DNA from: an uncultured Hyphomicrobiales bacterium
Lineage (GTDB): Bacteria > Bacteroidota > Ignavibacteria > Kapaibacteriales > UBA7675
Assembly: GCA_964445695.1 (NCBI GenBank)
Contig: CAYULF010000004.1
Location: 137,880 to 201,879, forward strand
Length of the DNA stretch: 64,000 nt
Direction of reading: 5' to 3'
Below are positions 8,006 through 39,700 of this stretch, piece by piece. The notes below the pieces were generated by a model. The model saw nothing but the letters and a program-made list of their open reading frames with translations. It made no database searches and was not told the origin of the DNA. Within the stretch, counting starts at the first letter, position 1. Every line of letters starts with the position of its first letter. The translations under genes were made by a program, and so were the position numbers.

Positions 8006-8062
8006 GTGAAAAACAGGAACACTACCCGAGCCTGAGACGCGGATGCGGCTCAAAGCGCCGCA
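8006..8062 (+). repeat. Dispersed intergenic element, copy 2 (short variant).
   Basis: ...cccgagcctgagacgcggatgcggctcaaagcgccgcacag. Confidence 0.75.
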
Positions 8063-9974: not shown

Positions 9975-10631
9975 TCAATCAATGGGAATAATGGGAAAAT
10001 CCACTCCGCCGCCGGGTTTGCCGAGGATGCGGCACATGGCGAGCACCTGCCCCTGATGATGGTACAGATGTGTGAGCGTGCGCATCACCACAAGTGCCGG
10101 TTTGAGCATGCGCTCATTGCCGCCCCAGGAAATCATCTTGCGCTCCGTGTTAAGTTCCTGCGGCGTCGAGCTGTTTAAATAATCAGCCGTCATGTTAAAG
10201 GTTTTGAGACGGTATTGTTCGAGCGAGTCAATGTCGGGATAATCTTCGAGATTTTCATCGGCGAGCATCTGGCCCAGCAGGACGCCGATCCAGTATTCGT
10301 TGGCGCCGATTTCATGACAAAGCTGCTCGCGCACGGTTGGCAATCCGAAGCCGGGAATGCTGCGATTCAGCTCTTCATTATTCAGTTGACGGCAATGGTC
10401 CAACAGGTCGCGCAAATTTTTGTGTGCGCGCAGATTCAGATCAAGCAGCGCTTCTTTTGTGTACAAGCTGGGTCTCCCGAAGAGGGTGAAGGAATTTTGG
10501 CAAATGTACAAAAATCCGGTCAGATGGGTATGAGTTGTCAGGATAGAATCAATCGAGCTGAAGACGCCGCCGGCGACAAGTTCGCAATGCTGCGCAAAGG
10601 CGGTGATGTCGTCGTTGAAATGCGCTTGCAC
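9975..10631 (-). CDS. DinB-family-like protein (second, divergent copy).
   Basis: C-terminal THLYHHQGQV motif parallels the neighbouring DinB gene. The N-terminal half has no match I recognise. Confidence 0.45.
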   Translation of the reverse strand: MQAHFNDDITAFAQHCELVAGGVFSSIDSILTTHTHLTGFLYICQNSFTLFGRPSLYTKEALLDLNLRAHKNLRDLLDHCRQLNNEELNRSIPGFGLPTVREQLCHEIGANEYWIGVLLGQMLADENLEDYPDIDSLEQYRLKTFNMTADYLNSSTPQELNTERKMISWGGNERMLKPALVVMRTLTHLYHHQGQVLAMCRILGKPGGGVDFPIIPID

Positions 10632-10780
10632 GGAGAACGTTTTGAGAATTTTTTACCCGGCCATATTGAAGAGTACTTTATCAGATTCGCGACAATGTGG
10701 CTGGTCGGTCGGTAAATTCCGATGAGCGGGCGGTTTTGGGTGATGAGCGGGTGCGTGTAGCGGATTGGACGTACTCCTCC

Positions 10781-11075
10781 GTGAAATCAAGTTGGGCCCG
10801 CCCCCGCCACCACCTCCGACGTCTGTTTATCCTCCACCACACAGGCCTCCCTGCCGGCCCGAATCAGCAGATTCCGCCCGGCTTTGCGCCTGTGTCAATA
10901 CGCCGACTCGTCAGCCGACACCCGCAACATCCGCACAAATTCACCGATCTCAAACCGTAAAAAGTTAATCGTACCCAAATACCGCACCAAGCGGGCAGAA
11001 TTCCTTCCTGAACGAAAAAAGAAACCCCATCGGTGTGCCGGCCGATGAGGTCTCTGTTCGCCGCATGGGCGCTAT
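10781..11075. repeat. Conserved noncoding element, copy A, immediately 3' of giant gene A. About 90% identical to copy B at 33393..33690.
   Basis: Direct comparison of the two regions. The C-rich tract GGGCCCGCCCCCGCCACCACCTCC is identical in both. The substitution pattern is not codon-like. Confidence 0.7.
11011..11052 (-). terminator. Rho-independent terminator of giant gene A.
   Basis: On the minus strand: stem CCTCATCGG / CCGATGGGG with loop, followed by TTTCTTTTTTCGTT. Confidence 0.6.
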
Positions 11076-11091
11076 CTGCTGAGTATCGTGC

Positions 11092-14000
11092 TTAGCGCTG
11101 AATCACAAGCTTCGACTCAATCACCTGATCACGACCGGCATTGTCGCGGAATTCAACCAACAGAATGTAAACTCCGGCCGGCAGCAGTGCTCCGTCGCGC
11201 TCAACCGCGGTCCAGCGGATCTGTTGTATACCCGTTGGCGAAGCCGCCTGCGCAAAACCGGCTATCCGACGTCCAGCCAGATCATGAATCGCAAAGGAAA
11301 CCGCTGCGCCCGTGCCAACGTCAATTCGAACTTCCTCCCCGCTGCGCAAAGGATTGGGCGTAACGCCGAGCAGTGGCGTCCGATCGACATTTGCAAGATC
11401 AGTCTGCGACTGTTTCGGCTGTACCACGCTAATGGTGATCGTCGCAGTTGATTCACCGCCGTGACCGTCGCTGACAGTGTACTGAATCTGATCCAGCCCG
11501 GTAACAGCGCCGGCGCTGTAGTCGATCGTCGTTCCACCGCCGCTGAGCGCTACCGTACCAAAACTGCCGTTAAGCGCATTGCTGATAGTTAACAAGTCGC
11601 CGTCGGGATCGCTGTCGTTGCCGAGCGGCATCAGCACTTTGACGTTGTTTGCTGCCACGGCGCCCGCCGCATCGGACACTGCCAGCGGTTTGTGATTGCG
11701 CTGCAGCACCGCCACCGCATCTTCAGCCGATCCGGGAACGTAGGCAAACGCTCCGTCCGGCGAAATCGCCGCCATGCCCGCACCTGCCAGTCCATCGTAA
11801 CCATTAATGCCGTCCGTGTACACCCCGGCCAGATCAAGCGCGCCGCTCATCGGATTGCGATTAAACAAAACAACGGAGTTGTCGATTTGCCCCGCAGCCC
11901 ACAACTGTGCACCGTCCGGACTCAGGTTAACGCCGGAAACTCCGTTAAGTCCGGAAATCCCGATCGATCCATTGCTGTATTTCGCGCCAAAACTCAACGT
12001 GCCGTCGGCGGCGTTGCGATTAAACATCACCACGGCGTCATCGTAGTATCCGGCGGCGTACACATGACGACCGTCGGACGACACCGCAACATCACAAGCG
12101 CCATCGATTCCGTCAATTCCCGCCTGCCCGTTCTTGTACCGAGTCACATACGTCAGCTCTCCTGTAATGGCGTTGCGTCGGAACAGGGCAATCGCATCGT
12201 CGGCCATGCCACTGATGTAAACGTGTTTGCCGTCGAAACTGAGCGCCAATCCAAGCGCCTGTCGCAGTCCGTCAACGCCGTCCAGTCCATCCTTGAAGTA
12301 ACCCACAAAGCTAACTTCGTCAGTTAAGTCGTCCTTGCGGAAAATTGCGATGGAGTTGTCGTCGTGACCGCTTAACACAACCGTGCGTCCGTCCATGCTT
12401 ACATCCACACTGCGCGGTCGTTTCATTCCGTTAATCGTCAGTTCGCCGTCGGCCTGGCCCTTTTTCTTGCGAACAACAAAAGTCAGGTCGCCGTTTGTTT
12501 TATCGCGCCGGAAAACAACCAGCGCATTGTCGCCGTAACCGGCGGCGTAGAGGAAAGCACCGGACGGGTCGATGGCCAGGTCCGACGGATACTTTAGTCC
12601 GACAATGCCGGCGCGTTGATCCCGTACGCGCGAAAGATAGTTTAAGGTGCCGTCGACCGGATTGCGTTGGAAAATGACGATTGAATGTTCATTGCGTCCG
12701 GCGGCATACACAAAGCGGCCATCGGGACTGACAACCGCGCTGCAAACGTTTTCCAGCCCGCGAATATCACCGACGCGATTGCGCTGAAGTTGCAGCATCC
12801 CGGCATTAACCGGCAGCTCTTCGTCGGCCGGCACCACCACAACCACGGCTCCGGTGGCCAGACAGAGGCCGGCCGTCCGCATCGTGTAGTTAAACACTTC
12901 ACTTCCGCTGAAACCCGCGTCGGGCACATACGTCACTACGGCACCCAGAAACGTTGCCTGGCCGTGCTGCGGCTCGTCAACGAACAGCAAAGAAGCGCTG
13001 CTGCCCAGGTCGTTGTTTAACACATTGACACTTGCACTGCTGTTGGTCACCAGCAGGTAGTCCATGGCAGTCAGCACAGTTTTGGGTGTGATAATCAACT
13101 GCTCGGACAGATTGCAACCAGTGAGTGTGTTTCGGCTGACGGACAGAACTGCCGATGTGCCTCCCTGATCCCAGATCACCTGGACCTGATCACTACCCTG
13201 CCCGCTTACGATCTGCCCGCCGACGATCGACCAAAGATGTGTAGCCGTGTTGTCTTCCGGCAATGCGCTATATGTTAACAACATGTTTGGACAGCCGCAG
13301 GTCGACCCGGTGATGGACAAGTCAGCAACAGGATCAACCTGTATGCTGATCGTTGTCGCAACTTCATAGATGCCGTCGACTACTCGAATCGTCACTGTCG
13401 CGGAGCCGGTCGCCCCACAGACCGGAACGGCCTGAAACTGAACAGAAGACGCCGGCGAAGCCAGAGTCAGATTGACATCTGTAAACAGAGATTGATTGTT
13501 GGACGTTGCGCTCAGCAACATGCCGCTGTAATCCTTGTCGACGTCGATAATCGAAATCACGGCGCTGGTTTGCTGATTTTCTTTGTTTGTCAACGTGAGC
13601 GGAGCCGACAGCATCGGCGGATCGTTGACCGGCAGAACACTTAACAGAATCGTCGTCGAACGCGTGAATTCGCCGTCATTCAGAAAGAACTCCAGCGTCG
13701 TAGCGCCGTGTGCGTCGGCGGCGGGTTGCAGTACAACATTGGTCGTAGCGCTCAGCGTACCGGCCACGATGCCCGAGCTTGCTATCAGCGCCTGACTGGC
13801 CGACGTGGCGGTCAGCACCAACATGTTAAACGGCGTGTCGACGTCCGTCAGCTGCAGAACGGCGGTAGTGGCCGTATCTTCATCCGTCGTGACGAGCGAT
13901 GCGTACGCCCTGATCACCGGTGGATCGTTAACCGGGTTCACCGTTAATGTCAGAGATGTTGTTCGGGTGTAAACTCCGTCGACGACACTGACCGTAATGA

Positions 14001-17000
14001 TCGCCGCTCCGTTCGCATTTAACTCCGGTATGACTTCCATGTTTGTCGTCGCACCGGTAGCGCCCAGTATGATCCCGCCGCCGGAGAGCAGAGACTGATT
14101 GGCTGAAGTTGCGCTCAACAGCAAGTGTGAAAAGGGCGTGTCTATATCGCTGAGCAGGATTGTCGCATTTGTCGACACATCCTCATCTGTCGTCAATTGC
14201 GGGTTGACAAGCGTGAGCAGCGGCGGATCGTTGACCGGATTAACATTCAGCGTGAACGTCGTCGACACGGTCGCCTGGCCGTCAAAGGCTGAGATCGTGA
14301 CCAACGCCGTGCCATTGGCGTTCGGCACGGGATTGACTTCCACCTGCATCGAAGCGGCCGTAGCCGAAAGCACAAGGCCGGCATTCGACACAAGTGTCTG
14401 GTCGCTTGACGTAACGCTGACTGCGATCTGGTTAAACGCATTGTCGACGTCGAACAGGCTGAACGTTAAACTCGTAGCCTGATCTTCATCCGTCGCCAGC
14501 AAATCAGCGGCTGCGAGCAGCGGCGCGTCGTTAACAGGCAGAAATGAAACTAGCACCGTTGTGCTGTGCGTCAGTTCGCCGTCGTCGACGCTGAAGGTCA
14601 ACGGCACGTTGTTGAAATTGGCGTCCAGTGCCGGTGTAATGATAAACTGCGTATTGGCCGATGTTGCGCCGGATTGTACGATCGAGGCGATCGTCGATCC
14701 GTCGGTCACAGGCAGTGTCAGGTTCAAAGCGCCAATGCCCGGCCAGACGTCCTTCACTTTCAGCGTCAGCAGCAGCGGAGTATCTTCGGTCCCAACGTGC
14801 AGCGTCTGATTGGTCGCAATCCGCGGTTGGTCGTTGTTGAGTGTAAAGTTCGCCCGGGTATGTCCGGCGTCGGTAAACAGCGTCACCGGCAGCACCGCCG
14901 CGTTAACGCCCAGACCGGCCGGAATCTGCAGCGACGAACTTGTCAGCCCGACACTGTTGATCGTCAGAGATGTCGTACCGGTCGAATTGCCCAGTTGATT
15001 AACCGTTGCGATGTTCGCCGCCGTTATGTAAACGTGATGTCCCCGGGCGTCGAAACTGATCGACGCCGTCGTGACGGTCGCAGCTGCCGGCGCAAAAGCA
15101 GAAATCGTCGGCTCGTCAAGATTCTGCCAGATGCGCTCGGCGCCGTCGCGCGCCACAATGACTTCCAACGCGCCGTCCGAATCGATATCGCCCAGGTCGG
15201 CTCCGCGCGAAACGCCGCTGCCGCGCACGCGACGCTTAAACGTTCCGTTGCCATTATTCAGCCAGAACTCGTCAGCGTTGTCCGTCGCAATGACTGCGTC
15301 GGGAAATCCATCTGCGTTGATATCGCCAACAACTATGCCGTTAACCGCGCCCGCAACAACTGATGCGCTGGTCGTAAATGCAGCGTTGCCGTCGTTGAGT
15401 AGAATTTCTACCGTCGGCTCGTTCAGCTGTGACTTGCTCGCCACCAGCAGGTCGACAAAGCCGTCGCCGTTGACATCCGCCGCTGCAACTTCACCGGCTT
15501 CGCGATTGTCGAGATTCTGCTCGGTAAACGTGTTGTCATTGTTATTAAGGTGGATTGTGCTCCCGCCGCTGCCGTGGCCGACAAAGATGTCTACGGCGTC
15601 GTCACCGTTCAGATCGACAAGCGCCACAAATTCGGCCGCTCCGTTGATAAAAGGCGCAACCGCAGGAATACCACCGCCGTTGTTGCGCCCCAGCAACAAG
15701 CCGGAACTCGACGTCCACAAAACGTCAAGATCACCGTCGCCGTCAAGGTCGTTTACGGCAACTCTGGTTGTGCTGCGTCCCTGGTTCAGTCCGAATTGTG
15801 TCGCGACAAAAGTTCCGTCGCCGTTGTTCATCCAGACTTCGGCCATGGCCGAGCCGGAACTGGCCAGGGCTGCATCCAGATCACCGTCGCCGTCCAGATC
15901 GCCGAGTTTAACCGCGCGGTACTCGTCCGGTCCATAGGAGTTCTGGTTAAACGTTCCGTCGCCCTGACCAAGCCAGATCGACGAGGTACCGCCCTCATTG
16001 ACGACGATGGCATCCAGCAGGTAGTCGCCGTTCAGATCGCCGAGCGCTACGTCGTTTGACATGCCCGAACCGAGAGCGAGTGGATAATATCCACCCGTAC
16101 CCTCCGGCACTGCAGCGGTATAGCTGAGAACTTGCGGAATCTGCGTCTGATTAATATTGTTAACAGCTTCGCGTGCACTGATTACGACTTTTTCTCCCGG
16201 AAAAAATTCGATGCCCGGATCGATCGCCACGACCAGATTCGTGGTGTTGGCGCTCAATCCGGCTGTTGTCCAGCGCAGTCCGCTTTGCATTCCCTGCACC
16301 GTCAGATTCTGAATTGCCGCCGTTGTAGTCTGCTCTAATTGATCCACCAGAGTCCGTTCGCGCCAGGTCAGCTCGATGTCGTCATCCACACCGCCGTTAA
16401 ACGAGTTACGCGCGGGGGACATTGAAATCACACGCGGCAGCGGATTATCATTGAGAAAGAGCTTGCCGGTGGAGCCGTCGCCGGCCACCAGGTCGAGGTC
16501 GCCGTCGCCGTCAAGGTCGGCACTGCGCATCGCCACCATGCCGAAGTCCTGCGGCGACGACGAAGAAAAAGTTGCGTCGCCGTTGTTTAACAACAAAAGA
16601 TCGGGATTTGCGTTTGCCAGAATCAGAATGTCGAGGTCGCCGTCGCCGTCGTAATCGCCGGTGTCGACCGAGCTACCATTGCCCGTGTTGCCGATTAGCG
16701 ACTGTGCAAAAACGGCGTTGCCCTGATTCAGAAACAGTTCACTTTGCGCGCCGCTATCGGTACCGGCAACGATGTCCAGCAGACCGTCGTCGTTGAAGTC
16801 GGCCAGTTCAACTTCGAAGTAACGCCCCGAGGCGATTTCAAACTCGTCAAAACCGCCATTGCCGTCACCGAGCCGGATTTCAAGCGGCTGCGGATTGGGA
16901 AAGTCGCGCCGCGCCGAAACGACGTCCAGATTTCCGTCCTTGTCCAGGTCGCCGATTTTAACGCTCTGATATCGTCCCGTCGCCAGGCTCGATTCGGCAA

Positions 17001-19428
17001 AAGTCGCGTCGCCGTTGTTGCGGAACAAACGCAGCTCGGTCAGGCTGCCGACCAACAAATCGAGATCGCCGTCACCGTCAAGATCACCCACGGCTGCATC
17101 GAGCAGGGGCATCAGCGGTCCAAAAGTGGACGTAGTAAACGAGGCCGAGCCGTTGTTTTCCAGCAACATCAGATTACTGCCGATGACATCGACAACGACA
17201 TCCAGGTCGCCGTCGCCGTCGAAATCAGCGGCAATGGCATGCGCGTCCGCACCCGGCGCAATTCCAAGCGCATCTTTTTGCCAGGTGCCGTCGGAACCGA
17301 CATTTAACAGATGAATATTATTCTGTTCAATCAGCAGCGTTTCGGCGATGTGATCGCCGTCAAAGTCGCCCGCGAGAAAGTTTTCGGCTGCTCCAAGTTC
17401 GTCGGCTGTGAACTCCGCACTGCCGCCGACAGACGCTACGCGGAATCCGCTCACAACAGGGTTCGCCAGCTCGACGCCGGCCTGAGACTGACCTCCCGTT
17501 GACGAAACAGAAATGAATTCCCCGGGCAGGAAATCGTCGGCGGGGTTAAAAGTCAGGACGCGATCTGTGCCGTCAAATGTCGCAGGTGCGCTAAGCACGC
17601 GACCGGACTGCGAACCATGTAAAAATACCGAGGTGTTAAGCGGACTGACGCTGACCGTGTTCATCGTGGAGTTAAACTCCAGCTCGACATTGCTGTCGCG
17701 CGGCGCGGCATTTTCATTGGCGGCCGGAGTGACGGACGCAAGTTGGACCACGGATTGATTAAACAGAATGCGATTTGCGCCGTCGCGCACCAGCACGGCA
17801 TCCAGATCGCCGTCGCCGTCAAGATCACCGAAATCAAGCGCCAGAAAACTCGCGCCGCCGACCGAACTCGTTGAGAAATTGCCCGTGCCGTCATTGATGC
17901 TCAGACGACATCCGCTCTCCGAACTTAACATATCGAGATCGCCGTCGCCGTCCAGATCGGCAAATCCGTGGCGATAGTTGACAAAACTCGTTTCGATAAA
18001 ACTGTCACCGTTGATATCGGCAAACTTTAACGAATAGAAACCGCCGTTGTTAAACGTTGGACCGCCGATATTTTGACCACTGAACGTACCGTCGCCATTG
18101 TTGGACAGACGGTGACTGGTCCAGAGACGACCGACGATTCCCAGCTCCAGGTCGCCGTCGTGGTCGTAGTCGGCCAGTCTCGTCTGGTTCTGGAATCGCG
18201 TGCGTTGGTATGTGACGTTGTTAAACGTGCCGTCGCCATTGTTGAAAAAGAAGTCGTCATAGTCGAGATTTTCCGAGTACATGATGACATCCAGATCGCC
18301 GTCGCCGTCGATATCGCCAATTGAGACACCGGTGTTTTCGCTGTTGTAGCGACCAAAGTACGAGCTCGTAAAAGTCCCGTCGCCATTGTTAAAAAAGATG
18401 CGATTCTGGCGCTGCCAGCCGCCGGTCACGATGTCCAGATCGCCATCGCCGTCCATGTCCGCCAGGCCCAGACCGCGCGTTTTGCGTTCGTCGCTGCAAC
18501 AAGCCACGGCCAATTCGGATGTGGTAAAATTGCCGGCGCCATCGTTGAGCCAGACTTCATCCTGCTGCCCGAAGTTACCGACCACGACATCCAGATCGCC
18601 GTCGCCGTCAAGATCGCCGATTGCGACTTCGCGACTGTTCGAGTTGTTGGCGCCATGACCGAAGTTCACGCTTTTAAAATCGGGTGCGCCGCCGCTCGCC
18701 ACCGCTGCGTTAAACTGGAACACGGTGTAGTTGGCCATGGTAGCGCCGGTTGACGACTGCGCCGCGCGCACGGTGACGTCGACGCGTTCACCCGGCTTAA
18801 ACATTCCCGTCGGTCGCAAAACCACCTGTTTATTGTTGTTGCGGTAAAACAGCGCGGCATCGGCCGAGATATAACCGGTTTGAGACCCGTATACCACCAG
18901 GTTGGCGGCCGTTGTTGTTGTGGCGGTCGTCAGCGTGGTCACGTCCATACTGCGATCGAAGTCGATGGTAATTCCGGTGTTGCGCGGCGCGGCCAATGCA
19001 TTCGTCGAGGGCGAGAGAGCAACAATCTTCGGCGCCTGCGCAAACAGACCTTGCGGCGTAATCATTGCGGCGGCGGACAGAACGGCCGCGCACAATGCGG
19101 TACGCGGCGACGAGTCCACAATCTTGCCGAAACGGAGCAGACCGATGCGGCGCTCCAGCTGCGACATACGTTTAAACAAACATCGAATGCGTTTGGCTGT
19201 CGAATTCCGCTGCTGCTCTTCGTTGTTTTCGATTCGAATCAGTCGGCGCAGTGTTTTGCGATAGCGGCGCAGCAGCACGCCCATGTTCGCGTTTGAGTCA
19301 GACCACATTGTGTTAACCTTTATTTGGTCCATTGCAAAAGAAATGTTCGATTGATCGTCGAGCTCAGGGCGGTGGCTTTCAGTAAGTTTCCGTTTAAGCT
19401 GCACCGCCGTTTTGGCTGTTTTAAACAC
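11092..19428 (-). CDS. Giant secreted adhesin-like T9SS cargo protein (2778 aa). It contains FG-GAP/VCBS beta-propeller repeats, five cadherin-like (VNDAP) domains, a 7-bladed lactonase-type beta-propeller and a T9SS C-terminal sorting domain.
   Basis: Many DxDGDGDLD FG-GAP motifs. Repeats of PVNDAP/PVNDPP about every 100 aa. Lactonase-like blades (VSPDGRFVYAAGRNEHSIVIF...). C-terminus ...IHDLAGRRIA...AGVYILLVEF...KLVIQR matches the Por_Secre_tail pattern. Confidence 0.8.
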   Translation of the reverse strand: MFKTAKTAVQLKRKLTESHRPELDDQSNISFAMDQIKVNTMWSDSNANMGVLLRRYRKTLRRLIRIENNEEQQRNSTAKRIRCLFKRMSQLERRIGLLRFGKIVDSSPRTALCAAVLSAAAMITPQGLFAQAPKIVALSPSTNALAAPRNTGITIDFDRSMDVTTLTTATTTTAANLVVYGSQTGYISADAALFYRNNNKQVVLRPTGMFKPGERVDVTVRAAQSSTGATMANYTVFQFNAAVASGGAPDFKSVNFGHGANNSNSREVAIGDLDGDGDLDVVVGNFGQQDEVWLNDGAGNFTTSELAVACCSDERKTRGLGLADMDGDGDLDIVTGGWQRQNRIFFNNGDGTFTSSYFGRYNSENTGVSIGDIDGDGDLDVIMYSENLDYDDFFFNNGDGTFNNVTYQRTRFQNQTRLADYDHDGDLELGIVGRLWTSHRLSNNGDGTFSGQNIGGPTFNNGGFYSLKFADINGDSFIETSFVNYRHGFADLDGDGDLDMLSSESGCRLSINDGTGNFSTSSVGGASFLALDFGDLDGDGDLDAVLVRDGANRILFNQSVVQLASVTPAANENAAPRDSNVELEFNSTMNTVSVSPLNTSVFLHGSQSGRVLSAPATFDGTDRVLTFNPADDFLPGEFISVSSTGGQSQAGVELANPVVSGFRVASVGGSAEFTADELGAAENFLAGDFDGDHIAETLLIEQNNIHLLNVGSDGTWQKDALGIAPGADAHAIAADFDGDGDLDVVVDVIGSNLMLLENNGSASFTTSTFGPLMPLLDAAVGDLDGDGDLDLLVGSLTELRLFRNNGDATFAESSLATGRYQSVKIGDLDKDGNLDVVSARRDFPNPQPLEIRLGDGNGGFDEFEIASGRYFEVELADFNDDGLLDIVAGTDSGAQSELFLNQGNAVFAQSLIGNTGNGSSVDTGDYDGDGDLDILILANANPDLLLLNNGDATFSSSSPQDFGMVAMRSADLDGDGDLDLVAGDGSTGKLFLNDNPLPRVISMSPARNSFNGGVDDDIELTWRERTLVDQLEQTTTAAIQNLTVQGMQSGLRWTTAGLSANTTNLVVAIDPGIEFFPGEKVVISAREAVNNINQTQIPQVLSYTAAVPEGTGGYYPLALGSGMSNDVALGDLNGDYLLDAIVVNEGGTSSIWLGQGDGTFNQNSYGPDEYRAVKLGDLDGDGDLDAALASSGSAMAEVWMNNGDGTFVATQFGLNQGRSTTRVAVNDLDGDGDLDVLWTSSSGLLLGRNNGGGIPAVAPFINGAAEFVALVDLNGDDAVDIFVGHGSGGSTIHLNNNDNTFTEQNLDNREAGEVAAADVNGDGFVDLLVASKSQLNEPTVEILLNDGNAAFTTSASVVAGAVNGIVVGDINADGFPDAVIATDNADEFWLNNGNGTFKRRVRGSGVSRGADLGDIDSDGALEVIVARDGAERIWQNLDEPTISAFAPAAATVTTASISFDARGHHVYITAANIATVNQLGNSTGTTSLTINSVGLTSSSLQIPAGLGVNAAVLPVTLFTDAGHTRANFTLNNDQPRIATNQTLHVGTEDTPLLLTLKVKDVWPGIGALNLTLPVTDGSTIASIVQSGATSANTQFIITPALDANFNNVPLTFSVDDGELTHSTTVLVSFLPVNDAPLLAAADLLATDEDQATSLTFSLFDVDNAFNQIAVSVTSSDQTLVSNAGLVLSATAASMQVEVNPVPNANGTALVTISAFDGQATVSTTFTLNVNPVNDPPLLTLVNPQLTTDEDVSTNATILLSDIDTPFSHLLLSATSANQSLLSGGGIILGATGATTNMEVIPELNANGAAIITVSVVDGVYTRTTSLTLTVNPVNDPPVIRAYASLVTTDEDTATTAVLQLTDVDTPFNMLVLTATSASQALIASSGIVAGTLSATTNVVLQPAADAHGATTLEFFLNDGEFTRSTTILLSVLPVNDPPMLSAPLTLTNKENQQTSAVISIIDVDKDYSGMLLSATSNNQSLFTDVNLTLASPASSVQFQAVPVCGATGSATVTIRVVDGIYEVATTISIQVDPVADLSITGSTCGCPNMLLTYSALPEDNTATHLWSIVGGQIVSGQGSDQVQVIWDQGGTSAVLSVSRNTLTGCNLSEQLIITPKTVLTAMDYLLVTNSSASVNVLNNDLGSSASLLFVDEPQHGQATFLGAVVTYVPDAGFSGSEVFNYTMRTAGLCLATGAVVVVVPADEELPVNAGMLQLQRNRVGDIRGLENVCSAVVSPDGRFVYAAGRNEHSIVIFQRNPVDGTLNYLSRVRDQRAGIVGLKYPSDLAIDPSGAFLYAAGYGDNALVVFRRDKTNGDLTFVVRKKKGQADGELTINGMKRPRSVDVSMDGRTVVLSGHDDNSIAIFRKDDLTDEVSFVGYFKDGLDGVDGLRQALGLALSFDGKHVYISGMADDAIALFRRNAITGELTYVTRYKNGQAGIDGIDGACDVAVSSDGRHVYAAGYYDDAVVMFNRNAADGTLSFGAKYSNGSIGISGLNGVSGVNLSPDGAQLWAAGQIDNSVVLFNRNPMSGALDLAGVYTDGINGYDGLAGAGMAAISPDGAFAYVPGSAEDAVAVLQRNHKPLAVSDAAGAVAANNVKVLMPLGNDSDPDGDLLTISNALNGSFGTVALSGGGTTIDYSAGAVTGLDQIQYTVSDGHGGESTATITISVVQPKQSQTDLANVDRTPLLGVTPNPLRSGEEVRIDVGTGAAVSFAIHDLAGRRIAGFAQAASPTGIQQIRWTAVERDGALLPAGVYILLVEFRDNAGRDQVIESKLVIQR

Positions 19429-19913
19429 AGGGAGCCCGCTCGGCCCCGCGCGTGTGCCGGCGACGCGGGGCCGAAGACTTGGCTCCGGAAATTGCTGTTA
19501 ACTGTTTGTGCGTTTGAATCGCACTACAAAAATACGGTGGTGATACAGCGACTTTTCTACGACATTATTACGACAAACACAGTACTATAGCGTCGGAGAT
19601 GGTGTATTTGAGTGAAAAATCGTCGCCTTTTACTACAAGCACTACAGCATCGCACTCCACTGCTGTCCCTGGAAATGCGAAGTTGGTCAAGTCTTCCGGT
19701 GTTTGAGTCCGGAAAAAAAGCGCATGAACACTGGCTTGAGGCAGGATTTGTGAATCCGAAACAGGTGACCGGCACTCCGGCGTTCAGAAAAGGGCTGGAT
19801 GTAGTAGCGCTACAGCAGTGTCGTAGTGCGACGAAAACAGTATCGCAGCAGACTCTGCAGCTCAGTTTGTTGAACTCATTGGTGCATCGTCGATGCGAAC
19901 GGTGAAAGTCAGG

Positions 19914-21962
19914 TCAATTCGACAGCAGGAAACCGGCCAGATCCTGGCCCTGCTCCAGACCGAGTTTCTTGCGAACGCGATAGCGGTAGGTTTCGACGGC
20001 GCGAATCGACACGTGCATCGCATCGGCCGTTTCGCGGTTGCTGAGCCCGTCGCAAATGGCGGCGCAGACTCTGCATTCGGTGACGGAAAGGGCCGGGAAA
20101 CGGCGTTTGACGGATTCAATTGTATCGGTCTGAATTGCAGCGGCGGGATCCACAACCGGCGCATTGCCTTCGAACAGAGCCTGTTCCACCGCGGCAAGGG
20201 CGGAGTTTGCCTGCGGCAGGTTCAACGTGCGGCCGGTCAACAAATCGGATTCAATAAAAGCGATGATCTGGCGTTCGCGTTTTTCGTCTTCTTCGGCACG
20301 GAGTTGATTCAGCGACGCGCCTTTCGCGACTTCATCCAGGCGCGTGCGCAGTTCCTCCATCCGCCTGTTTTTCTCATCAAGTATATGCTGCAGCATCCCG
20401 GCGTTCTCACCTACCAACAGCCTGTCAACGCTGTTGTTGACCTGCGGCAGAATAATCTCGCGCTCGCGTTGGTGCAACAGCTTTCGGTGTTGCAGCGCCT
20501 CGCGAAAATCGCCTAATCGCTCGGCCACGGCAGCCAGTTCAGCGTGGACGGCGCGTGTCGTCTGCCATTCGTGGCAGAGCTCGGACTGCGCCAACGCTTC
20601 GAGCAACCTGACGCGCGCAATTGTGTGATTGCCGCGCAGCGCCGCAATGCGCCCCAGTCCCAGCAGAGCATTCGCTTCCTTGCAGGGAATAGACATCCCC
20701 TCGAACAATTGCAGGCACTCTTCATAAGCCGACGCGGCGGCGTTCAGGTTGCCACGCAGCTCTTCCGCCCGGGCCAGCAAGAGAAGTATCTGCGCTCGAG
20801 CACCGGGATTGTCAGCCTGGACAGTTTCGGCTTCCGCCTGAAAAACAGCGGCTGTCGCGTCAAGGTCGATCAGCTCGGGCATGTTGTCCATGATGATGCG
20901 ATACACCGCAGTCCAACCTTCGCCGTGCGGCATTCCCAGCAGCAGATCAAGCGCTTCCAGCAGGTGTTTTCGTCCGCTGTCCTGCGCACCCAGATCGCAG
21001 TGCACCTGACCGAGCCAGCCGAGAATGCGCATGGTTTCAGCACGGCCGTCCAGATCGCGATAAATCTCGCCGGCGCGCGACAGCTCTTTGATGGCGCGAT
21101 CGTACATCCCGCTGCGCATGGCGCGCACGCCGTACATTTCGTGCAACAGGGCTTGATGCTGACGATTCCCGGTTTCGCTCGCCAGACTAATGGCTTCGCG
21201 CAAAGGCGTGGCGTAGTCGGAACGGGGATCCAGAATAAATCTAAATGCCGAGTGGTTGTACAGAAGGCGCAGCAACAAATGTTTGTCGTTGAGACCACGC
21301 GCAATCTCAATCGCCTGCTCGATCGATTCAATCGCATCGGCCGTATGTGCGGCATCGTGTTGCACATTGGCAATTTCCGCCAGCAGTTCAGCTTTGTCTG
21401 CGGCGGGTACATGCGGCAGATACTGCAAGGCCAGGTTCACATCGGCAAAGGCGGCTTCGTGGTTTTTCCGCATCACGTGAATAGTGGCGGACATGGCAAA
21501 CAATCCGGCCTGATGACGCGGCAGCGAAAGCTGCACGCACATTTCCATTGCCAGATGCAGTTGTTTAAGCGCCTCATCCAATTCCCCTTTGTTGCGCAGA
21601 TGCTGCACGAGTTGCATCAGGCCGGGCATCATCTTTTCCCAGGCTTCCAGCTCCTCCCACAGAACGAGCGCTTCGCGCAGCCGTTCAAGCGCCTCCTTTG
21701 ACCTGAATTCGGCAATCAGACACTGCGCGTTGGCAAAGAGCGCGTCGGCCACAACCAGCCGGTAATCGCGCGCGCGTTTGTCGTTTTTGTCAAGACGCCC
21801 GTGCATACGCCGCGCCAGAACCAATGCTTTGGCGGCGGTATCGGACGCGGCGACGTGATCGACTCCCATCAGGGCCTGGGCCAGCTGCACCATGGCCGCA
21901 GCTTTGCGAATGCCGCGCGAGTACGAAACCTGTTTGCGATATTTATCAATCCTGGAGGACAT
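19914..21962 (-). CDS. Transcriptional regulator with TPR repeats and a C-terminal LuxR/GerE-type HTH.
   Basis: C-terminal LSVTECRVCAAICDGLSNRETADAMHVSIRAVETYRYRVRKKLGL is a LuxR HTH. The upstream ~600 aa are helical repeats. No receiver or AAA domain. Confidence 0.75.
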   Translation of the reverse strand: MSSRIDKYRKQVSYSRGIRKAAAMVQLAQALMGVDHVAASDTAAKALVLARRMHGRLDKNDKRARDYRLVVADALFANAQCLIAEFRSKEALERLREALVLWEELEAWEKMMPGLMQLVQHLRNKGELDEALKQLHLAMEMCVQLSLPRHQAGLFAMSATIHVMRKNHEAAFADVNLALQYLPHVPAADKAELLAEIANVQHDAAHTADAIESIEQAIEIARGLNDKHLLLRLLYNHSAFRFILDPRSDYATPLREAISLASETGNRQHQALLHEMYGVRAMRSGMYDRAIKELSRAGEIYRDLDGRAETMRILGWLGQVHCDLGAQDSGRKHLLEALDLLLGMPHGEGWTAVYRIIMDNMPELIDLDATAAVFQAEAETVQADNPGARAQILLLLARAEELRGNLNAAASAYEECLQLFEGMSIPCKEANALLGLGRIAALRGNHTIARVRLLEALAQSELCHEWQTTRAVHAELAAVAERLGDFREALQHRKLLHQREREIILPQVNNSVDRLLVGENAGMLQHILDEKNRRMEELRTRLDEVAKGASLNQLRAEEDEKRERQIIAFIESDLLTGRTLNLPQANSALAAVEQALFEGNAPVVDPAAAIQTDTIESVKRRFPALSVTECRVCAAICDGLSNRETADAMHVSIRAVETYRYRVRKKLGLEQGQDLAGFLLSN

Positions 21963-22213
21963 TCACCTGTTTAACTCATTCTCCTACTGACACTGAACGG
22001 GCGGCTGCATGCATTATGTGTAGCAGACCAGTTCCCGGCGTTTGACTTTGTTCCTGCTACAGACTTTCGGCTGCACTCCTCTGCGGACTTGCAACAAAAA
22101 TACTTCGCGTTGGTTTAATCGCGGCTGAAATCTGCGCGACCAGCAAAAAGGGTTTTATCAAGTCATCAAAGAATTCCGGAGGACCGTCAAATGTTTGTTC
22201 AACCCGACACATG

Positions 22214-24337: not shown

Positions 24338-24626
24338 AATGTGCTGTCAGGCGGGACCTGCGCCGCGCTGTTCCGGGTTCGACTTGAACATCATCCTTTC
24401 ACGAGCAGGAAAATACCAAATTCACGCCATTTGGTTGGAATTCCACTCATAGATATCTGCGTCGCGAACGAATTGTTACTCATCCATGATCGCTTTGCCG
24501 CGTCGCGGCAGGCTCTTTTGAAATTTTGTTTGTCTTGCGGATTGACGCTTCAGTGTCTCAGGCCGGCCGAAAGTCTTCGCACGAGAAACTTCAGGACTGT
24601 CTCAAGACTTCGGGGCTTCAAACTGC

Positions 24627-24690
24627 GTGACAAACAAAAAAGTCAGAAGAGCCTGAGATGCAAGTGGAACGCGCAGCTCAAAGCGATCAG
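24627..24690 (+). repeat. Dispersed intergenic element, copy 3 (long variant).
   Basis: gtgacaaacaaaaaagtcagaagagcctgagatgcaagtggaacgcgcagctcaaagcgatcag. Lies ~50 nt past the 3' end of the MoxR-vWA operon. Confidence 0.75.
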
Positions 24691-32000: not shown

Positions 32001-32074
32001 TATTGTATTCCTGCTTTGTATTCGTTTTGTCTGTTAATTTTTCGGAATTCAGACCGATTCCTGGTCGGTCCGAA

Positions 32075-32809: not shown

Positions 32810-33053
32810 AAGGCGCTTTTTGCGCAGTAGGATCAGCGGCAGGGTGACATCGGACTACTCTTCTCGCTTTTCGATTCACAGTTTGACGGATGAAGACGCC
32901 GTTGCCCTCGCTTCTCTCCGGCCGGCTACCTGAGCGCTGCGCCGTCGATGACTTCCGGCTGGCTTATTCTCTTGTTCGTCGTCGAGTGCAGTTCGGCGCA
33001 CAATGGAGCGTAGAGTTCAATCAGACTTTGAGACTTACAGTTTGACATGCATC

Positions 33054-33114
33054 GGTTAACAAAACAGTCAAAGAGCCTGCGGTGCGAATGGAAAGAGCGA
33101 CGCAAAGCGGTCAG
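33054..33114 (+). repeat. Dispersed intergenic element, copy 4 (long, most divergent).
   Basis: ggttaacaaaacagtcaaagagcctgcggtgcgaatggaaagagcgacgcaaagcggtcag. Confidence 0.6.
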
Positions 33115-33232
33115 AAATCAGGAGATCAAGGAGCGAAGACACACTGAGTTAAACAGTGGGAATTGCAACGTCGCGTGTGAAGTCCGCGCCGAGACTGGAT
33201 AACAATGCAACGCAATTGTTCCGACAAAGCGA

Positions 33233-33320
33233 GAAGAAATTTTGTGCAATGAGGAATTTGCAATGAGGAATTTGCAATGAGGAATTTGCAGTGAGGGTTT
33301 TGCAGTGAGGATTTTGCAAT
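33233..33320. repeat. Tandem repeat of six 14-bp units (TTTGCAATGAGGAA, degenerating toward the 3' end).
   Basis: The motif ttgcaatgaggaatttgcaatgaggaatttgcaatgaggaatttgcagtgagggttttgcagtgaggattttgcaatgaggga is read directly from the sequence. Confidence 0.85.
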
Positions 33321-33392
33321 GAGGGATTGCCAAATTGTGGCGCAATTGTTGGAGACGTGAAGTCTGGAGTTTAAAAAGGGTCCTACCCCTGT

Positions 33393-33690
33393 GTGAAATC
33401 AAGTTGGGCCCGCCCCCGCCACCACCTCCGGCATGTGGTTATCCTCCACCACACAGGCTTCCCTCCCGGTCCGAATCAGCAGATTCCGCCCGGTTTTGCG
33501 CCTGTGTCACTTCGCCGACTCGTCAGCCGACGCATGCAACATCAACACAAATTCACCGATCTCAAACCGTAAAAACTTAAACGTCCCGGAAAATCGCACC
33601 AACCGGGCAGTTTTCGCTCCTGAACGCTGCAAATTAAAAGAGACCCCATCAGTGTGCCGCCGATGAGGTCTCTATGCGCCACGTAAGCGC
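33393..33690. repeat. Conserved noncoding element, copy B, 3' of giant gene B.
   Basis: About 90% identity to 10781..11075 over ~190 nt, with lower identity continuing to the terminator. Confidence 0.7.
33631..33672 (-). terminator. Rho-independent terminator of giant gene B.
   Basis: On the minus strand: GAGACCTCATCGG / CTGATGGGGTCTC hairpin followed by TTTTAATTT. Confidence 0.55.
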
Positions 33691-33708: not shown

Positions 33709-36700
33709 TTAACGTCGGATCAAAAGTCTGGACTCCAGCGTGTGCCGCTGCCCATCGTCGCCGCGGTACTCTACCAACAGAATATATGCGCCCGCCGCCA
33801 GGGGCGCACCGCCACCGTCCTCCGCCGTCCAGCGGATTTCGTGTACGCCGCTGTTCGAGGCCGGCTGTGTGAAAGTCGCAATGCGATGGCCCGCCAGATC
33901 GTGAATCGTGCAAACAACATCGGATTCAACATCGATCGCAATCAGAACCTCTTCCCCGCTGCGCAATGGATTCGGATGAACATGCACCTGCGGCGATTGT
34001 ACGGCCGACAGTCCGGGGGCATGCGACTGTTTCGGCTGCACCACGCTGAGTGTGACAGTCGCCGTCGATTCGCCGCCGTAGCCGTCCGAGATAGTATAAG
34101 TGAATTGATCCGCGCCCGTCGTCGCGCCGGCGCTGTATTCCAGCGTCGTGCCGCCGCCGATGATTGCAACCGTTCCCAGAGAGCCGTCGGTGGCCGAATT
34201 GACCGTGAGAGTATGGCCGTCCGAATCGCCGTCGTTGTTTAGGGGCGTAATCTGAAGTGTCCCGTTCGCCGTCGCCGCGCCTGCGTTGTCGTCGGCAGCC
34301 GTCGGCACGTGATTGCGATAAAGCACGGCCACCGCGTTCTCGTCGTAGCCGGGGACGTAGATATGCTCACCATTCCAGCTTGTGGCGGGCATGATGGCTC
34401 CCGCCAGCCCGTTAATGCCGTCAACGCCGTCGCGGCAGACTTCAACAAAGGTCAGCTTGCCACTGTCGCGATCGCGCTTAAACAGAACAAGTGCGTCTGA
34501 ATCGCGCGCACCGGCCCAAACCTGTGCGCCGTCGGGACTGACCGCCACACCCGTGATGCCGTCAAGACCGTCAATGCCGCCGTTGCCGTTATCGTAACTT
34601 TCCACAAAACTCAGCGTGCCGTCTGCGGAATTCCGATCAAACAATGCAACCGCGTCGTCGGCATTGCCCGCCACATAGACGTGTTTTCCGTCGGGTGAGA
34701 CGGCGACATCAATTGCTTTGCTCAGACCATTCACGCCGCCGACGCCGTCCTTGTACATCGTCGAATATGTTAAAACTCCGTCGCTGAGACTGCGCTCAAA
34801 CAGGGCCACGGCGTTGTCACCCGTTCCGGCAACGTACACATGACGGCCGTCCAGGCTGACATCCAGGCCGATCGCCTGACGCAAGCCGTTCACTCCGTCA
34901 AGACCATCCTTGAAATACCCGACAAAGTGCAGTTCTTCCGTTGCATCGACCCGATTAAACACGGCAATTGAATTGTCCGAATATCCGCTTACCAACACGC
35001 CTCGTCCGTCGGCGCTGACAACGACACCGCGCGGACCTTTCATGCCGTTAATTGTAATGCCGTTGTCGTCCTGTCCCTTTTTCTTGCGTTCAACAAATGT
35101 CAATTCGCCACTGGCAGCGTCGCGCTTGAACACCAGCAAAGCGTTGTCGCCATAACAGGCCGCATAGAGGTATTCTCCGGCCGGGTCGATAGCCAGATCG
35201 CTGGGGTATTCCAGCCCGACAACGCCGTTCCTGAGATTGCGCACACGCATCATCCACGTGAGCTCACCCGTCGCTGTGTTGCGTTGGAACAGTGCGATTG
35301 AATGATCATTGCGACCGGCAACGTACAGAAATTCACCGTCGGGGCTGACCGTCGCACAATACGCACCGCCGAGGCCGCGCACATCGCCGACGTGGTCCTG
35401 CCTGTATTCAACAAAGGAAGCGTTGACCTGCGCAGCCGCCATCAACGGTGAGACGGCAACCAACGCTCCGGTCGCCACGCAGTTGTCTATCGACCCAACC
35501 ACGTAGTTAAACACATCGATGCCGTTAAACCCGGAGTCCGGCGTGTATTCAATTTTGCCGTTGATAATCTGCGCCTGCCCATGTGCCGGCTGCCTCACCG
35601 AGAGAATGCTCAGGCCCGTTCCGACATCGTTGTTTAACACATCAGCCACAACACTCGAAGCCGTGACCAGGACGTGGTCCATCAAAGCCTGCACAGTCTT
35701 GGGCGTCACAATCAAAGCGGTGCCGGTCGTACATCCGGCGCTTGCGGTTCGGACAAGCGAGAGTGAGGCCGAACTTGCATTCTGATCCCACACAACCTGG
35801 ATCGTTCCCGTTCCCTGTCCGCCGATAATACTGCCGCCCTCGACATTCCAGACATGCGTCGCCGTATTGTCGGAAGGCAGAGCCTCGTACGTCAACTGCA
35901 CGTTTGGACAACCACAGTTTGCACCGGTAATGGAGATTGCCGCGATCGGCTGAACCACAATGTTAAACGACGTGCTGTTTTCGAACTCACCGTCAGACAC
36001 GCGCACGGTGATCAGAGCATTGCCGAAAGTGCCGCACTGCGGTGACATGTTTAATTGCACCGTCGCCGCCGTTGTTCCCGCTACCAGATCAGCATCGGCA
36101 AACAGAGCCTGATTGCTCGACGTGGCACTGACTGTCAACTGCGAAAAAGTATTGTCGATATCGTTAATCTGCACCGCCGTCGTGACCAGTTGATTTTGGG
36201 AGCTGCTCAGGTTCGCAGGACCACTGATCGTGGGCGCGTCGTTAACCGGATCAACAGTTATGTTAAACGACGTCGAACGACTGTACTCACCGTCACCTGC
36301 TGTTACGGTGATAACCGCCGAACCATTGGCATCGGCCTGCGGCGTAAACATCAGGCTCGTCGTGGCACTGGTAGTTCCAAACCCGATCGAAGCCGATGGA
36401 ATCAGCGTTTCATTGTTTGAAACGGCATTGAGCGACAAATGTGCAAAGGGCGTATCGATGTCGCTCAGGTTGAAGCTCAGCAGCGCCGGCATATCTTCAT
36501 CAATCGTGATAGCGGCGTTGTTTGTACTGATCACCGGCGCGTCGTTAACAGGCAAAATATTGACCACGAACGTCGTCACACGCGTGTACTCGCCGTCAAA
36601 GACCGAGACTGTTACATCCACGCTGCCGTTGGCATTAGCACCAGGATTCAGAACTATCCGTGTGTTGGCGCTGGTCGGCGTCACAATTGTCAGATCTCCA

Positions 36701-39700
36701 TCGGCCACGAGCGACTGATTGGACGATGTCGCGCTCAGGATAAGACTGTTAAACGCTGTGTCTATGTCCTCCAGGTTGACGGACAAAGTCAGCGGCGTGT
36801 CTTCCAGCGTGTTAACAACTGCATTGCCGGTGCTGATCACCGGAGCATCGTTAACCGGCAGAACGTCAATAACAAATTGCTGCGTGGCACTCGAACTCGT
36901 GTTCAGACCGCCGGTCGGGCCGTTATCCTGCAATTTTACCGAAACAATTGCCTGGCCATTCTGGTTCGTCGCCGGGACAAAAGTCAGATTGCCCGTCGTA
37001 ACCGAAATCTGCGGCTGAACAGAGAACAGTGAGTTGTTGTCATTCTGCACATCAAACGTCAAAGTCTGTGTGGTTTCCGGATCGCCGTCGTCTATTCCCG
37101 TCGCAAACGCCGCGTCGTAAACTCCGCTGTCCTCATTGACCGTTATATTTGCACTCGTGTTAAACAAAGGCGTATCGTTGATCGGTTGCACATCAACACT
37201 GAAAGACGTCGTGCGTGTGTACTCGCCGTCATTCACCGAAACATACAGCACAACAAGCCCGTTTGCGTTTGTTTCAGGCGTCAGCTGAATCGTGGTATTG
37301 GCGCTCGTCGGAGTTACAACAACAATTGAACCGTCGTCGACAATGGATTGGTTGGCGCTGGTGACGGTCAAAATCAGGTTGTTAAACGGCGTATCAATAT
37401 CCGCAACATCAACGGACATTGTGAGCGGTATGTCTTCCTCTGTCGTGACAACTGAATTACTTGTGCTGATCACCGGAGCATCGTTAACCGGCAGAACGTC
37501 AATAACAAATTGCTGCGTGGCACTCGAACTCGTGTTCAGACCGCCGGTCGGGCCGTTATCCTGCAATTTTACCGAAACAATTGCCTGGCCATTCTGGTTC
37601 GTCGCCGGGACAAAAGTCAGATTGCCCGTCGTAACCGAAATCTGCGGCTGAACAGAGAACAGTGAGTTGTTGTCATTCTGCACATCAAACGTCAAAGTCT
37701 GTGTGGTTTCCGGATCGCCGTCGTCTATTCCCGTCGCAAATGCCGCGTCGTAAACTCCGCTGTCCTCATTGACCGTCACATTTGCCCCGGTTGTGAATTC
37801 CGGTGCACCATTGACCGAAACAATTGACACCGAGAATGTGGTTGAACTGCTCAGCGCCCCATCGTCAACCGAAAAGGTCAGAGTCGTGCTGCCGTTGGCG
37901 TCCACTACCGGTGTGATCACATATTTTGTGAATTCGGCCGTGGAACCAAGCTGTGCAATCGATTGCAATAACGTGCCGTCGGCCGTCGGCGGCGTCAGCG
38001 TCAGACCGGCAATCCCGGGATCCACGTCCGTCAGTTTAACCGTCAGCGTAAACTGCGCGTTCTCCGGTGAAGCAATTACCGTCTGCCGCGTGGCGATAAT
38101 CGGCTTGTCATTGATGACCGTGAGCAAAGCGTTCGTTTCGCCGCCCGGCGTGACAATGTAGAGGTCATACCCGCCGACAACGCTTAACTCACCGGCAGGC
38201 ACCGTCACCGTGGATCGCGTACGACCCTGACTGTTAACCTGTACGTTGACAGACCCGGTAGTAATCCCGGCAGGCAAAATGTGCGATGAATTTGGGTAGA
38301 CGTCCCAACCGCCGACCTCCACCTGCACCGTACCCGATGTCGCTGCGACAGTACTGGGCGTCAAAACGCTGATGGAAGGTTGGTCCAGATTCTGCCAGAT
38401 GCGCTCAGCGCCGCTGCGCGCGACGACCACATCCACACTGCCGTCATCGTCGATGTCCGCCATAGCGGCCGCACGTGAAGTCCCCGAACCGTAGGTGCTG
38501 AGCGAGTTGAGCGCCACACCGTTGTTGAAAACGAGCTGGTCATTGGATTGTCCCTGCACGTCCGAGTGTTCGGTGGCGATGAAAACGTCAATGTCGCCAT
38601 CGTTGTCCACATCGCCCGTGGCAATGCCGTGCGGCTCGCCCGTCAGTTCGAGCGAAGACTTGTTGTAGCTGAATTCGCCGATATTGCGCCAGGTGTCCAG
38701 CGAAGGGAAATTGTCCTGATCCGTCTGCAGGTCGCCTCTTGTATTGGTCGCAAAGAGAATATCCATTATACCGTCGCCGTCAACATCCATAATTGCCGTA
38801 TCCCAGGCTTCGGGCGCGCCCAGCGCCTGGCTCGTGAACGTACCGCCGTCATTGCGCAGAATCAGCGAGGCCGCGCTTTCCTGCGCGCCGACGATGTCCG
38901 GCAATCCGTCGTTGTTTAAGTCCCCGATCGCAACGGCAACCAGGTCGCTGCCGCTCGCCAGCACACTCGTGGCAAACCCGGCCGAACCGTCGTTAAGCGC
39001 TAAAACAAGATCGTCGTTGCGCGCCAGCACCGCATCCAGGTCGCCGTCGCCGTCCATGTCGTACAGCGCCACGTCGTCGCCGTCTGTGCCGCCAAACCAG
39101 GAAATGGTAAACGTGCCGTCGCCGTTGTTTAACCACATTTCGGCCGCCGCCGCACCGCCACCGCTGCTCATGTTGGCCAGCATGGCATCAAGGTCGCCGT
39201 CGCCGTCCAGATCGCCGAGTGCCACGGCATAGTGATTGTTGCCGCCAAAGTCCGTCGTGCTGAAATCCCCGCCGCCCTGATTTAACCAGATCTGCGAATT
39301 GCCGCCGGTGTTGGCCGCGATCGCGTCAATCAGACCGTCTCCATTGAGATCCCCGAGAGCAATGTCACGGGTCTCGCCGCTGCCGAAATTCCTGTCGACC
39401 AGCACGCCCGAGCCGGACTGTACCTCCGCGCGGAACTCGTAGACGTGCGCGTGGTCAATCGGCAGATTGCCGTGGCTCTGCACGTCTTCGCTCACCGAAA
39501 ACAGGATGCGTTCGTTCGGGTAGGCATTGCGCCCCATATTGAAGTCGATCGTGCGAAACACATCGACGGAGGAAATGCTGGAATGCGTCGTTAGACCGCC
39601 CTGCATGCCTTGCAGCGTGAACTGTCCATAACCATCGGGATAGGAGAGTGTTGAAGTTGTCGCAGCAATCGGATGATTAAACTTCAGCGACACTGTTCCG

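Follow-up and report, generated by a model that had tools for sequence, protein, structure and literature searches.

The window, that is, the whole 64-kb stretch of DNA that was analysed, carries two giant paralogous genes, A and B, on the minus strand. Both encoded proteins contain FG-GAP-like repeats, cadherin-like domains, and lactonase repeats, and their translations, together with the Pfam hits of their homologs, suggest that they end in a T9SS-type C-terminal domain. Each gene is followed by an intrinsic terminator and, beyond it, by a conserved intergenic element. The genes and their terminators are located as follows:

11092..19428, minus strand: giant gene A, paralog of B
11020..11055, minus strand: intrinsic terminator of giant gene A, with a 14-bp stem and an 8-nt loop, ahead of TTTTTCGTTC
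33709..42567, minus strand: giant gene B, paralog of A
33639..33673, minus strand: intrinsic terminator of giant gene B, the same hairpin as after gene A

The space between the giant genes (24741-32809, minus strand) holds a complete-looking MoxR-vWA-beta-propeller ternary system (bpX4, bpMoxR, BpX2, bpX0/bpX1, and bpX3). It is kept in Co_bin.359 (JAUIKM01), a genome of another species that is 83% identical to the window DNA over 6.8 kb. The next relative among the bpX4 homologs was just 43% identical; thus, the database offered no further orthologs of the B locus. Shine-Dalgarno motifs precede the start codons of only 2–3 of 23 window genes, and several gene leaders are A-rich instead, which recalls translation initiation of the Bacteroidota/FCB type.

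The flanks of the two giant genes, 10781-10970 for A and 33393-33582 for B, align without gaps and are identical at 173 of 190 positions (91.1%). An earlier reading of the letters alone (hereafter, the sequence-only reading) had claimed about 90% identity over about 190 nt, which the alignment confirmed, with 17 substitutions (8 transitions and 9 transversions) in place of the roughly 14 counted before. Over the longer stretch of 10781-11075 versus 33393-33690, identity was 84.8%. In 60-nt sliding windows, the two copies were 0.83–0.93 identical within the element, as compared with 0.47–0.77 in the preceding 1.7 kb of coding DNA, and left of ~10770 identity dropped abruptly to 0.35–0.43, with weak homology extending ~15–30 nt left of 10781 and reaching ~10752. 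The genes themselves do not share the ~90% identity of the flanks, an outcome that the sequence-only reading had named as refuting: their coding identity is lower, in that their last 360 nt are 65% identical, their last 120 residues are identical at 65 of 120 positions (54%, previously put at about 60%), and the whole C-terminal halves of the proteins are 48% identical. Both copies also contain the identical 24-nt C-rich tract and the CACAGG...CCTGTG inverted repeat that had been pointed out. The tract, which is G-rich on the gene strand (10794-10817 in copy A), occurs nowhere else in the window and was matched in none of 100 shuffles. The conservation of the flanks is therefore real and far beyond chance.

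The position of the element relative to the terminators limits what it can be. Terminator hairpins are indeed present at both genes, as the sequence-only reading had noticed, but their placement had been mistaken: each terminator stands between the giant gene and the conserved core (10765-10930 in copy A and 33378-33542 in copy B), so that the core is downstream of it. Because a canonical terminator (14-bp stem and T-run) precedes the core, the proposed small RNA derived from the 3′UTR is unlikely. The proposed Rho-utilisation element does not fit either, since the gene strand of the core is G-rich and C-poor (69 G and 35 C of 166 nt), only the plus strand being C-rich, and is predicted to be structured.

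The element is not confined to the giant genes. An exact 19-mer scan, run with one genome per species, revealed three copies in Co_bin.359, and further copies were recovered from related contigs:

L003, Co_bin.359: locus orthologous to that of copy B
L004, Co_bin.359: ~150 nt downstream of the UDP-glucose 6-dehydrogenase gene
L002, Co_bin.359: adjoining a truncated IS3 OrfB fragment and a GxxExxY (PDDEXK_3) gene
L025, the window's own species: dehydrogenase locus
L023, a 98%-identical strain: DinB locus (locus A)
L024, a third lineage: DinB locus (locus A)

The element is thus a member of a low-copy, dispersed, noncoding family of ~200–250 nt with at least three loci per genome. The window holds two copies, and 3–4 are known per genome. 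No diverged copies, including downstream of the third giant gene, were found by nhmmer in the window and the retrieved loci or by a covariance model run on the window with filters off. In the genome collection, an exact-pattern scan gave the 3 true copies and 10 chance hits; in the metagenome collection, it gave 5 chance hits and no true copy. Carriers of the element comprised only 2–3 closely related species, which is a small sample. Among homologs of the gene A C-terminus, the closest full-length ones were 38–43% identical, and the two flanks fetched (L019 and L020) lacked the element.

Three of the chance hits were mutually homologous loci in Latescibacterota MAGs (L006 2954-2987, L009 1969-2002, and L013 5991-6023) with ~20 nt in common with the element. 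There, GGGCGGAATCTGCTGATTCG, which matches the tip of hairpin H2 described below, precedes tandem repeats of GTCTATTC, and a gene that looks PhyH-like in its first 21 codons begins just after them. This 20-nt match is most likely due to chance.

The distribution of the copies bears directly on the relation of the element to the giant genes. It might have been the tail of a segmental duplication of these genes, without function and homogenized by recent gene conversion. A and B are paralogs whose homology extends unbroken from the coding DNA past the terminator and on into the element, and the 110 nt between terminator and core are shared best by A, B, and L003. However, the core also lies at L002, L004, and L025, loci without a giant gene, and its conservation between species exceeds that of coding DNA. 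The copies beside the UDP-glucose dehydrogenase gene and the IS3 fragment largely refute this reading, which we regard as highly unlikely, and they likewise sever the link to the giant-gene pair that had been assumed earlier.

Neither does the element appear to encode a protein. A small protein, either from the plus-strand ORFs of 59–87 aa or from an 11-codon minus-strand mini-ORF (ML..SADESA.*), would agree with the finding that all three plus-strand frames are open over the core and that, in alignment A4, 5 of 6 copies retain the mini-ORF. The three open frames are nevertheless attributable to the C-rich composition of that strand. Substitutions showed no codon-position bias and no third-position excess in any of the frames examined, three on the plus strand and one on the minus strand, in agreement with the sequence-only reading, and conservation at the nucleotide level includes third positions. 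In alignment A4, L003 and L004 carry frame-shifting 1-nt indels, and in L004 a TGA interrupts plus frame 0, the 59-aa plus-strand frame. None of the nine candidate ORF products was found among about 15 billion predicted proteins, and a concatenated six-frame peptide query yielded no homolog among 5.8 billion proteins. The proline-rich ORFs doubted earlier are thus unsupported, and a protein product has, in our judgement, next to no chance of being real.

A comparison of the copies with one another showed that their degree of similarity does not follow their position. Across five copies and 143 aligned columns (from ATGTTGC to CCCAACT, 10788-10928), pairwise identity of the core was 88–94%, whether the copies were orthologous or not. 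The core of L003 is 94.4% identical to A and 89.4% identical to B, though it is sited at the B locus, and L024, at the A locus, bears B-like patches. Such mosaic cores indicate exchange between copies. Between species, the cores are 89–94% identical, as against ~80–86% for the flanking coding DNA and 40–68% for the adjacent intergenic DNA; the corresponding values at the dehydrogenase locus are 76–82% for intergenic DNA and about 90% for the core. Three loci are common to the species; hence, the insertions are older than the species split. Gene conversion alone would not fix a family consensus across species, and maintenance of the family by purifying selection is therefore the simplest reading of the sequences. 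The earlier argument that conservation of noncoding DNA beyond that of neighbouring coding DNA points to selection is supported by these three orthologous loci.

The element also marks a large rearrangement. A 13.3-kb segment of the window (10812-24157) is absent from Co_bin.359 at the corresponding site (L021 3620-3654). Giant gene A and a 682-aa TPR-LuxR gene are missing, as is the greater part of element A and of another TPR-LuxR gene (707 aa). On the left, the break falls within a coding sequence, which indicates a deletion in Co_bin.359; on the right, it lies in the G-tract of the element. The DinB locus of Co_bin.359 retains DinB itself and a truncated remnant of the element, its last ~50 nt.

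This breakpoint, the mosaic cores, and the dispersal of the copies over unrelated loci, one of them abutting the truncated IS3 transposase fragment, would suit a non-autonomous mobile or recombining repeat of the MITE, REP, or Correia type, which would have no RNA function and whose copies would be alike through spread and gene conversion. Moreover, five contigs (L004, L022, L023, L024, and L025) end within the element, as repeats cause in short-read assemblies, at least two other short intergenic repeat families are present in the window, and copy B is flanked by a 19-nt direct repeat with 74% identity. That repeat was found in B alone, however, so that no consistent target-site duplication emerged, and terminal inverted repeats were lacking in A, B, and L002. 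Intact copies have no associated transposase. BLAST searches of plasmids and phages gave no match, the exact-pattern scan of viral contigs gave 0 hits, and the metagenome collection held no match either. The copy number is as low as two per 64 kb. The insertions at the three orthologous loci are old, with surroundings of ~80–86% identity and decayed neighbouring intergenic DNA, yet their cores have stayed at 89–94%. We therefore consider a mobile repeat without RNA function rather unlikely.

Other intergenic repeats of the window were also noticed. The second family occurs at 2353-2401, 8009-8057, 24616-24688, 33040-33112, 43227-43299, and 50257-50305 and at L021 3081-3157. Its minus-strand sequence is CGCTTTGAGCCGCG-TCC-GCGTCTCAGGCTC and then TTTTGAC-TTTTTGTT. 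Minus-strand genes immediately precede four of the six window copies, and these sites include the one behind the third giant gene and the one in the region after element B. These repeats look like sequence-conserved terminators and are also present in Co_bin.359. The third family (43016-43067, 49299-49350, and 63897-63948) is 52 nt long and 90–96% identical, and consists of ACGTA..ACGTA followed by a perfect 13-bp hairpin, GAGCTGTGAGCCC-TTA-GGGCTCACAGCTC. In addition, about 7 units of a 14-nt tandem repeat, TGCAATGAGGAATT, occupy 33231-33342 between element B and the next repeat; the array is not kept at the orthologous L003, and the Logan contig L028 ends in it. Finally, the stretch 32850-33130, downstream of element B, is 85–93% identical between species when compared with L003 and contains no convincing ORF; the repeat at 33040-33112 overlaps this stretch, as do two 51-aa ORFs on the plus strand.

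The genes that follow the element on the same strand provide a test of a cis-acting role. A promoter and 5′-leader module regulating the downstream gene, as the sequence-only reading had also envisaged, is consistent with the promoter-like site at the 5′ end of the element and with the lack of a U-run after the last hairpin of the A-locus copies. At locus A, the element ends ~120–135 nt upstream of the DinB-family ORF 9975..10631, and a second DinB_2 gene comes next in relatives. The fit does not extend beyond that locus. At locus B, the next minus-strand gene begins ~580 nt beyond the element, past the tandem repeat and another repeat element; downstream of L002 lies the IS3 fragment, on the opposite strand; and the downstream genes have no common function. 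Even at locus A, Co_bin.359 keeps DinB while most of the element is lost. A leader module is accordingly unlikely.

The layout of the element was derived from its copies, and the structural features of A and B were assigned as follows, with all positions in the window and sequences given on the gene strand:

10957..10998, minus strand: 5′ part of copy A with promoter-like site, CTGCCCGCTTGG
10985-10990, minus strand: putative −35 of copy A, TTGGTG
10962-10967, minus strand: putative −10 of copy A, TAACTT, with a 17-nt spacer from the −35
10765..10930, minus strand: conserved core of copy A, ATGTTGC ... GGGCCCAACTTGATTTCAC GGAGGAGTACGTCC
10901..10920, minus strand: predicted hairpin H1, UGUCGGCU-GACG-AGUCGGCG; 8 pairs, 97.9% of cells paired
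10840..10894, minus strand: predicted three-tiered hairpin H2, CACAGGC/GCCUGUG, CCGG/CCGG, and GAAUC-UGCU-GAUUC; 17 pairs, the same in every copy
10822..10839, minus strand: invariant linker, UGGUGGAGGAUAA, predicted single-stranded (alignment A4 columns 143-160)
10805..10821, minus strand: predicted hairpin H3, CGUCG-GAGGUGG-UGGCG, within the G-rich tract 10794-10817; 5 pairs, 94.7% paired
10767..10803, minus strand: predicted terminal hairpin H4, GGGCGGGCCC, with the invariant loop AACUUGAUUUCAC and a variable 3′ arm; 10 pairs, 84% paired
33369..33610, minus strand: whole element of copy B, with putative −35 at 33597-33602, putative −10 at 33574-33579, and core at 33378-33542
33513-33532, 33452-33506, 33417-33433, and 33378-33415, minus strand: predicted hairpins H1, H2, H3, and H4 of copy B
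33373-33377, minus strand: U-run in the 3′ end of copy B, which reads UUUUUAAAC after H4

On the gene strand, the shared core runs from ATGTTGC to GGGCCCAACTTGATTTCAC plus ~15–30 weaker bases, whereas the 5′ part is looser and common to A, B, and the dehydrogenase loci. With the covariance model, the core of copy A scored 247 bits and copy B scored 246.5 bits. The linker UGGUGGAGGAUAA is followed by a hypervariable patch of 5–9 nt; a pseudoknot of this patch with the H1 loop was considered and dropped as inconsistent between copies.

Several lines of evidence assign the pairing potential to the minus strand. RNAalifold, applied to four complete copies, gave −59.8 kcal/mol for the minus strand versus −34.2 for the plus strand. 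Single-sequence folds of the gene strand had z values of −2.2 (A) and −3.5 (L002), compared with −1.1 for the plus strand of copy A. In nine full or partial copies, pairing in the four-hairpin model reached 94.8% of cells for the gene strand, as against 80.2% for the opposite strand. The weaker pairing of the latter arises because H1, H3, and H4 need G·U pairs. Thus, H1 includes two constant G·U pairs that are workable on the minus-strand RNA only, three pairs of H3 vary one-sidedly between G-C and G·U, and in H4 the variation is C/U facing G. Eight further standard pair types were counted, all of them one-sided changes (G-C to G·U or G·U to A-U), and some other cells in H1, H3, and H4 were unpaired. 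Variable columns were enriched in unpaired positions (20 of 84 versus 7 of 70 paired ones, p = 0.03). Two-sided compensatory changes were found in 0 of 40 pairs among copies that, at 88–94% identity, are too similar to decide the matter, and the covariation score was the same as that of shuffles. The structural check proposed in the sequence-only reading favoured the minus strand and brought no compensatory changes to light. Derivation of the model from the same sequences inflates its comparison with slid controls. Overall, the four-hairpin structure is compatible with the data, although unproven.

H2 is the sole helix that forms on the plus strand too. As a perfect three-tier palindrome that never varies, it would suit an element acting at the DNA level, either as a folded single strand or as a protein-bound recombination or binding site on the nested palindromes, and the rearrangement breakpoint inside the element would agree with such a role. 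The dependence of H1, H3, and H4 on G·U pairs, however, means that they are not DNA palindromes, no recombinase or integrase gene stands beside any copy, and the long invariant non-palindromic segments would be left without explanation. Hence, a DNA-level element seems very unlikely.

The 5′ part of the element contains a weak promoter-like site. The pattern TTGnnn-16/17-TAAnTT, in which the sequence of the spacer varies, is kept in A, B, L003, and L004; L025 has TGATTT at the −10 position, and L002 is without the site, so that the pattern is retained in 4–5 of 6 copies. A free spacer of fixed length between conserved hexamers is what is expected of a promoter. The consensus promoter scan of 10500-11200 returned 0 sites, the promoter-like site being below its threshold. 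At the other end, a U-run follows H4 in the B-locus copies only (UUUUU in B and AUUUUCU in L003), and the remaining copies, copy A included, have no obvious terminator after H4; the 3′ end is therefore uncertain.

Searches for a known identity of the element were negative. No Rfam 15 family, which the sequence-only reading had proposed to search, matched the 64-kb window at gathering thresholds, and at E values up to 10 the region 10700-11100 gave two chance-level snoRNA hits only (E 3.6 and 5.5). A literature search under the MAG accession found no publication. Inspection by eye led to the rejection of a hammerhead core (CUGACGAG is present, but without GAAA or matching helices), a sigma-54 promoter (the GG-N10-GC spacing is absent), an integron attC site (a lone GTTGGGC at 10791-10797 with no partner site), and domain V of a group II intron. 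An IS200/IS605 or IS110 guide RNA was dropped for lack of an associated tnpB, iscB, or recombinase gene, and a template/variable repeat pair of a DGR was dropped because the substitutions are not adenine-specific.

Taken as a whole, the explanation that we tentatively prefer, at somewhat less than an even chance, is that each copy is an independent small-RNA gene on the minus strand, in the same sense as the giant genes. Whereas the dispersal and conservation of the family, its lack of a coding signal, and its strand-specific pairing potential were shown directly, we infer transcription, RNA ends, structure, and partner from sequence. Transcription would start at a sigma-70-like promoter just past the upstream terminator (~10990-10962 in copy A) and would yield a G-rich RNA of ~195 nt, from about 10955 to 10760 in copy A. 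This RNA would fold into the four hairpins H1–H4 and expose the invariant single-stranded segments, namely the linker UGGUGGAGGAUAA, the GAGGUGG loop, and the AACUUGAUUUCAC loop. Acting in trans, the exposed segments might bind a protein that recognizes GGA/GGAGG or a C/U-rich RNA. Gene conversion between the copies would keep paralogs as alike as orthologs, and the same exchange would make the element prone to rearrangement and to breaks in assemblies.

The exposed motifs allow a more specific, though far more speculative, proposal. Each core contains 4–6 GGA motifs, and the H3 loop and the linker each hold one GGAGG; enrichment of GGA over that expected from the G-rich composition is modest. 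Although Shine-Dalgarno motifs are so rare before the window genes, the element bears GGAGG three or four times, once as GGAGGUG in a hairpin loop, and has a tract capable of forming a two-quartet G-quadruplex. The canonical anti-Shine-Dalgarno tail of 16S rRNA is CACCUCC. GGAGGUG would be a perfect 7-nt complement of it, although the tail of the host itself may differ. A new class of RNA that binds the ribosomal anti-Shine-Dalgarno tail or a GGA-binding regulator and thereby titrates translation capacity is conceivable on these grounds, but we consider it a long shot. The number of GGAGG motifs may merely reflect the 42% G content of the element.

If the element is transcribed, it would represent a new family of small RNAs. 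Its uncultivated and hardly sampled lineage has giant adhesins of the T9SS type and makes little use of Shine-Dalgarno motifs, and regulatory RNAs have not been described from it. Apart from this, the element marks a repeat that is prone to recombination and breaks up the assemblies of these genomes, and it borders a 13-kb gain or loss that takes in a giant adhesin gene. The family is narrow and of low copy number, so that its value is local for now.

The element was also compared with known systems. Like the 3′UTR-derived small RNAs CpxQ and SroC, it directly follows the 3′ end of a protein-coding gene in the same orientation; however, these RNAs share the terminator of the mRNA, whereas the core of the element lies past a canonical terminator and also behind unrelated genes. 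With REP/BIME, ERIC, Correia, and BOX repeats and MITEs it has in common that it is intergenic, repeated, hairpin-rich, often just downstream of genes, recombination-prone, and apt to break assemblies. It differs from them in its very low copy number, in the lack of terminal inverted repeats and target-site duplication, and in the strong conservation that its old orthologous insertions still display. The multi-copy small-RNA families Qrr1–5, PrrF1/2, RsmX/Y/Z, and CsrB/C have no sequence or structure match to the element in Rfam, and most of its copies, unlike these RNAs, have no clear intrinsic terminator. Nevertheless, the element resembles these families: its paralogous copies are few per genome and lie in intergenic regions unrelated to one another, each copy has its own putative promoter, and a near-invariant core is set between variable flanks. 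Its several GGA/GGAGG motifs, of which one lies in a hairpin loop, are loosely reminiscent of the Csr/Rsm sponges.
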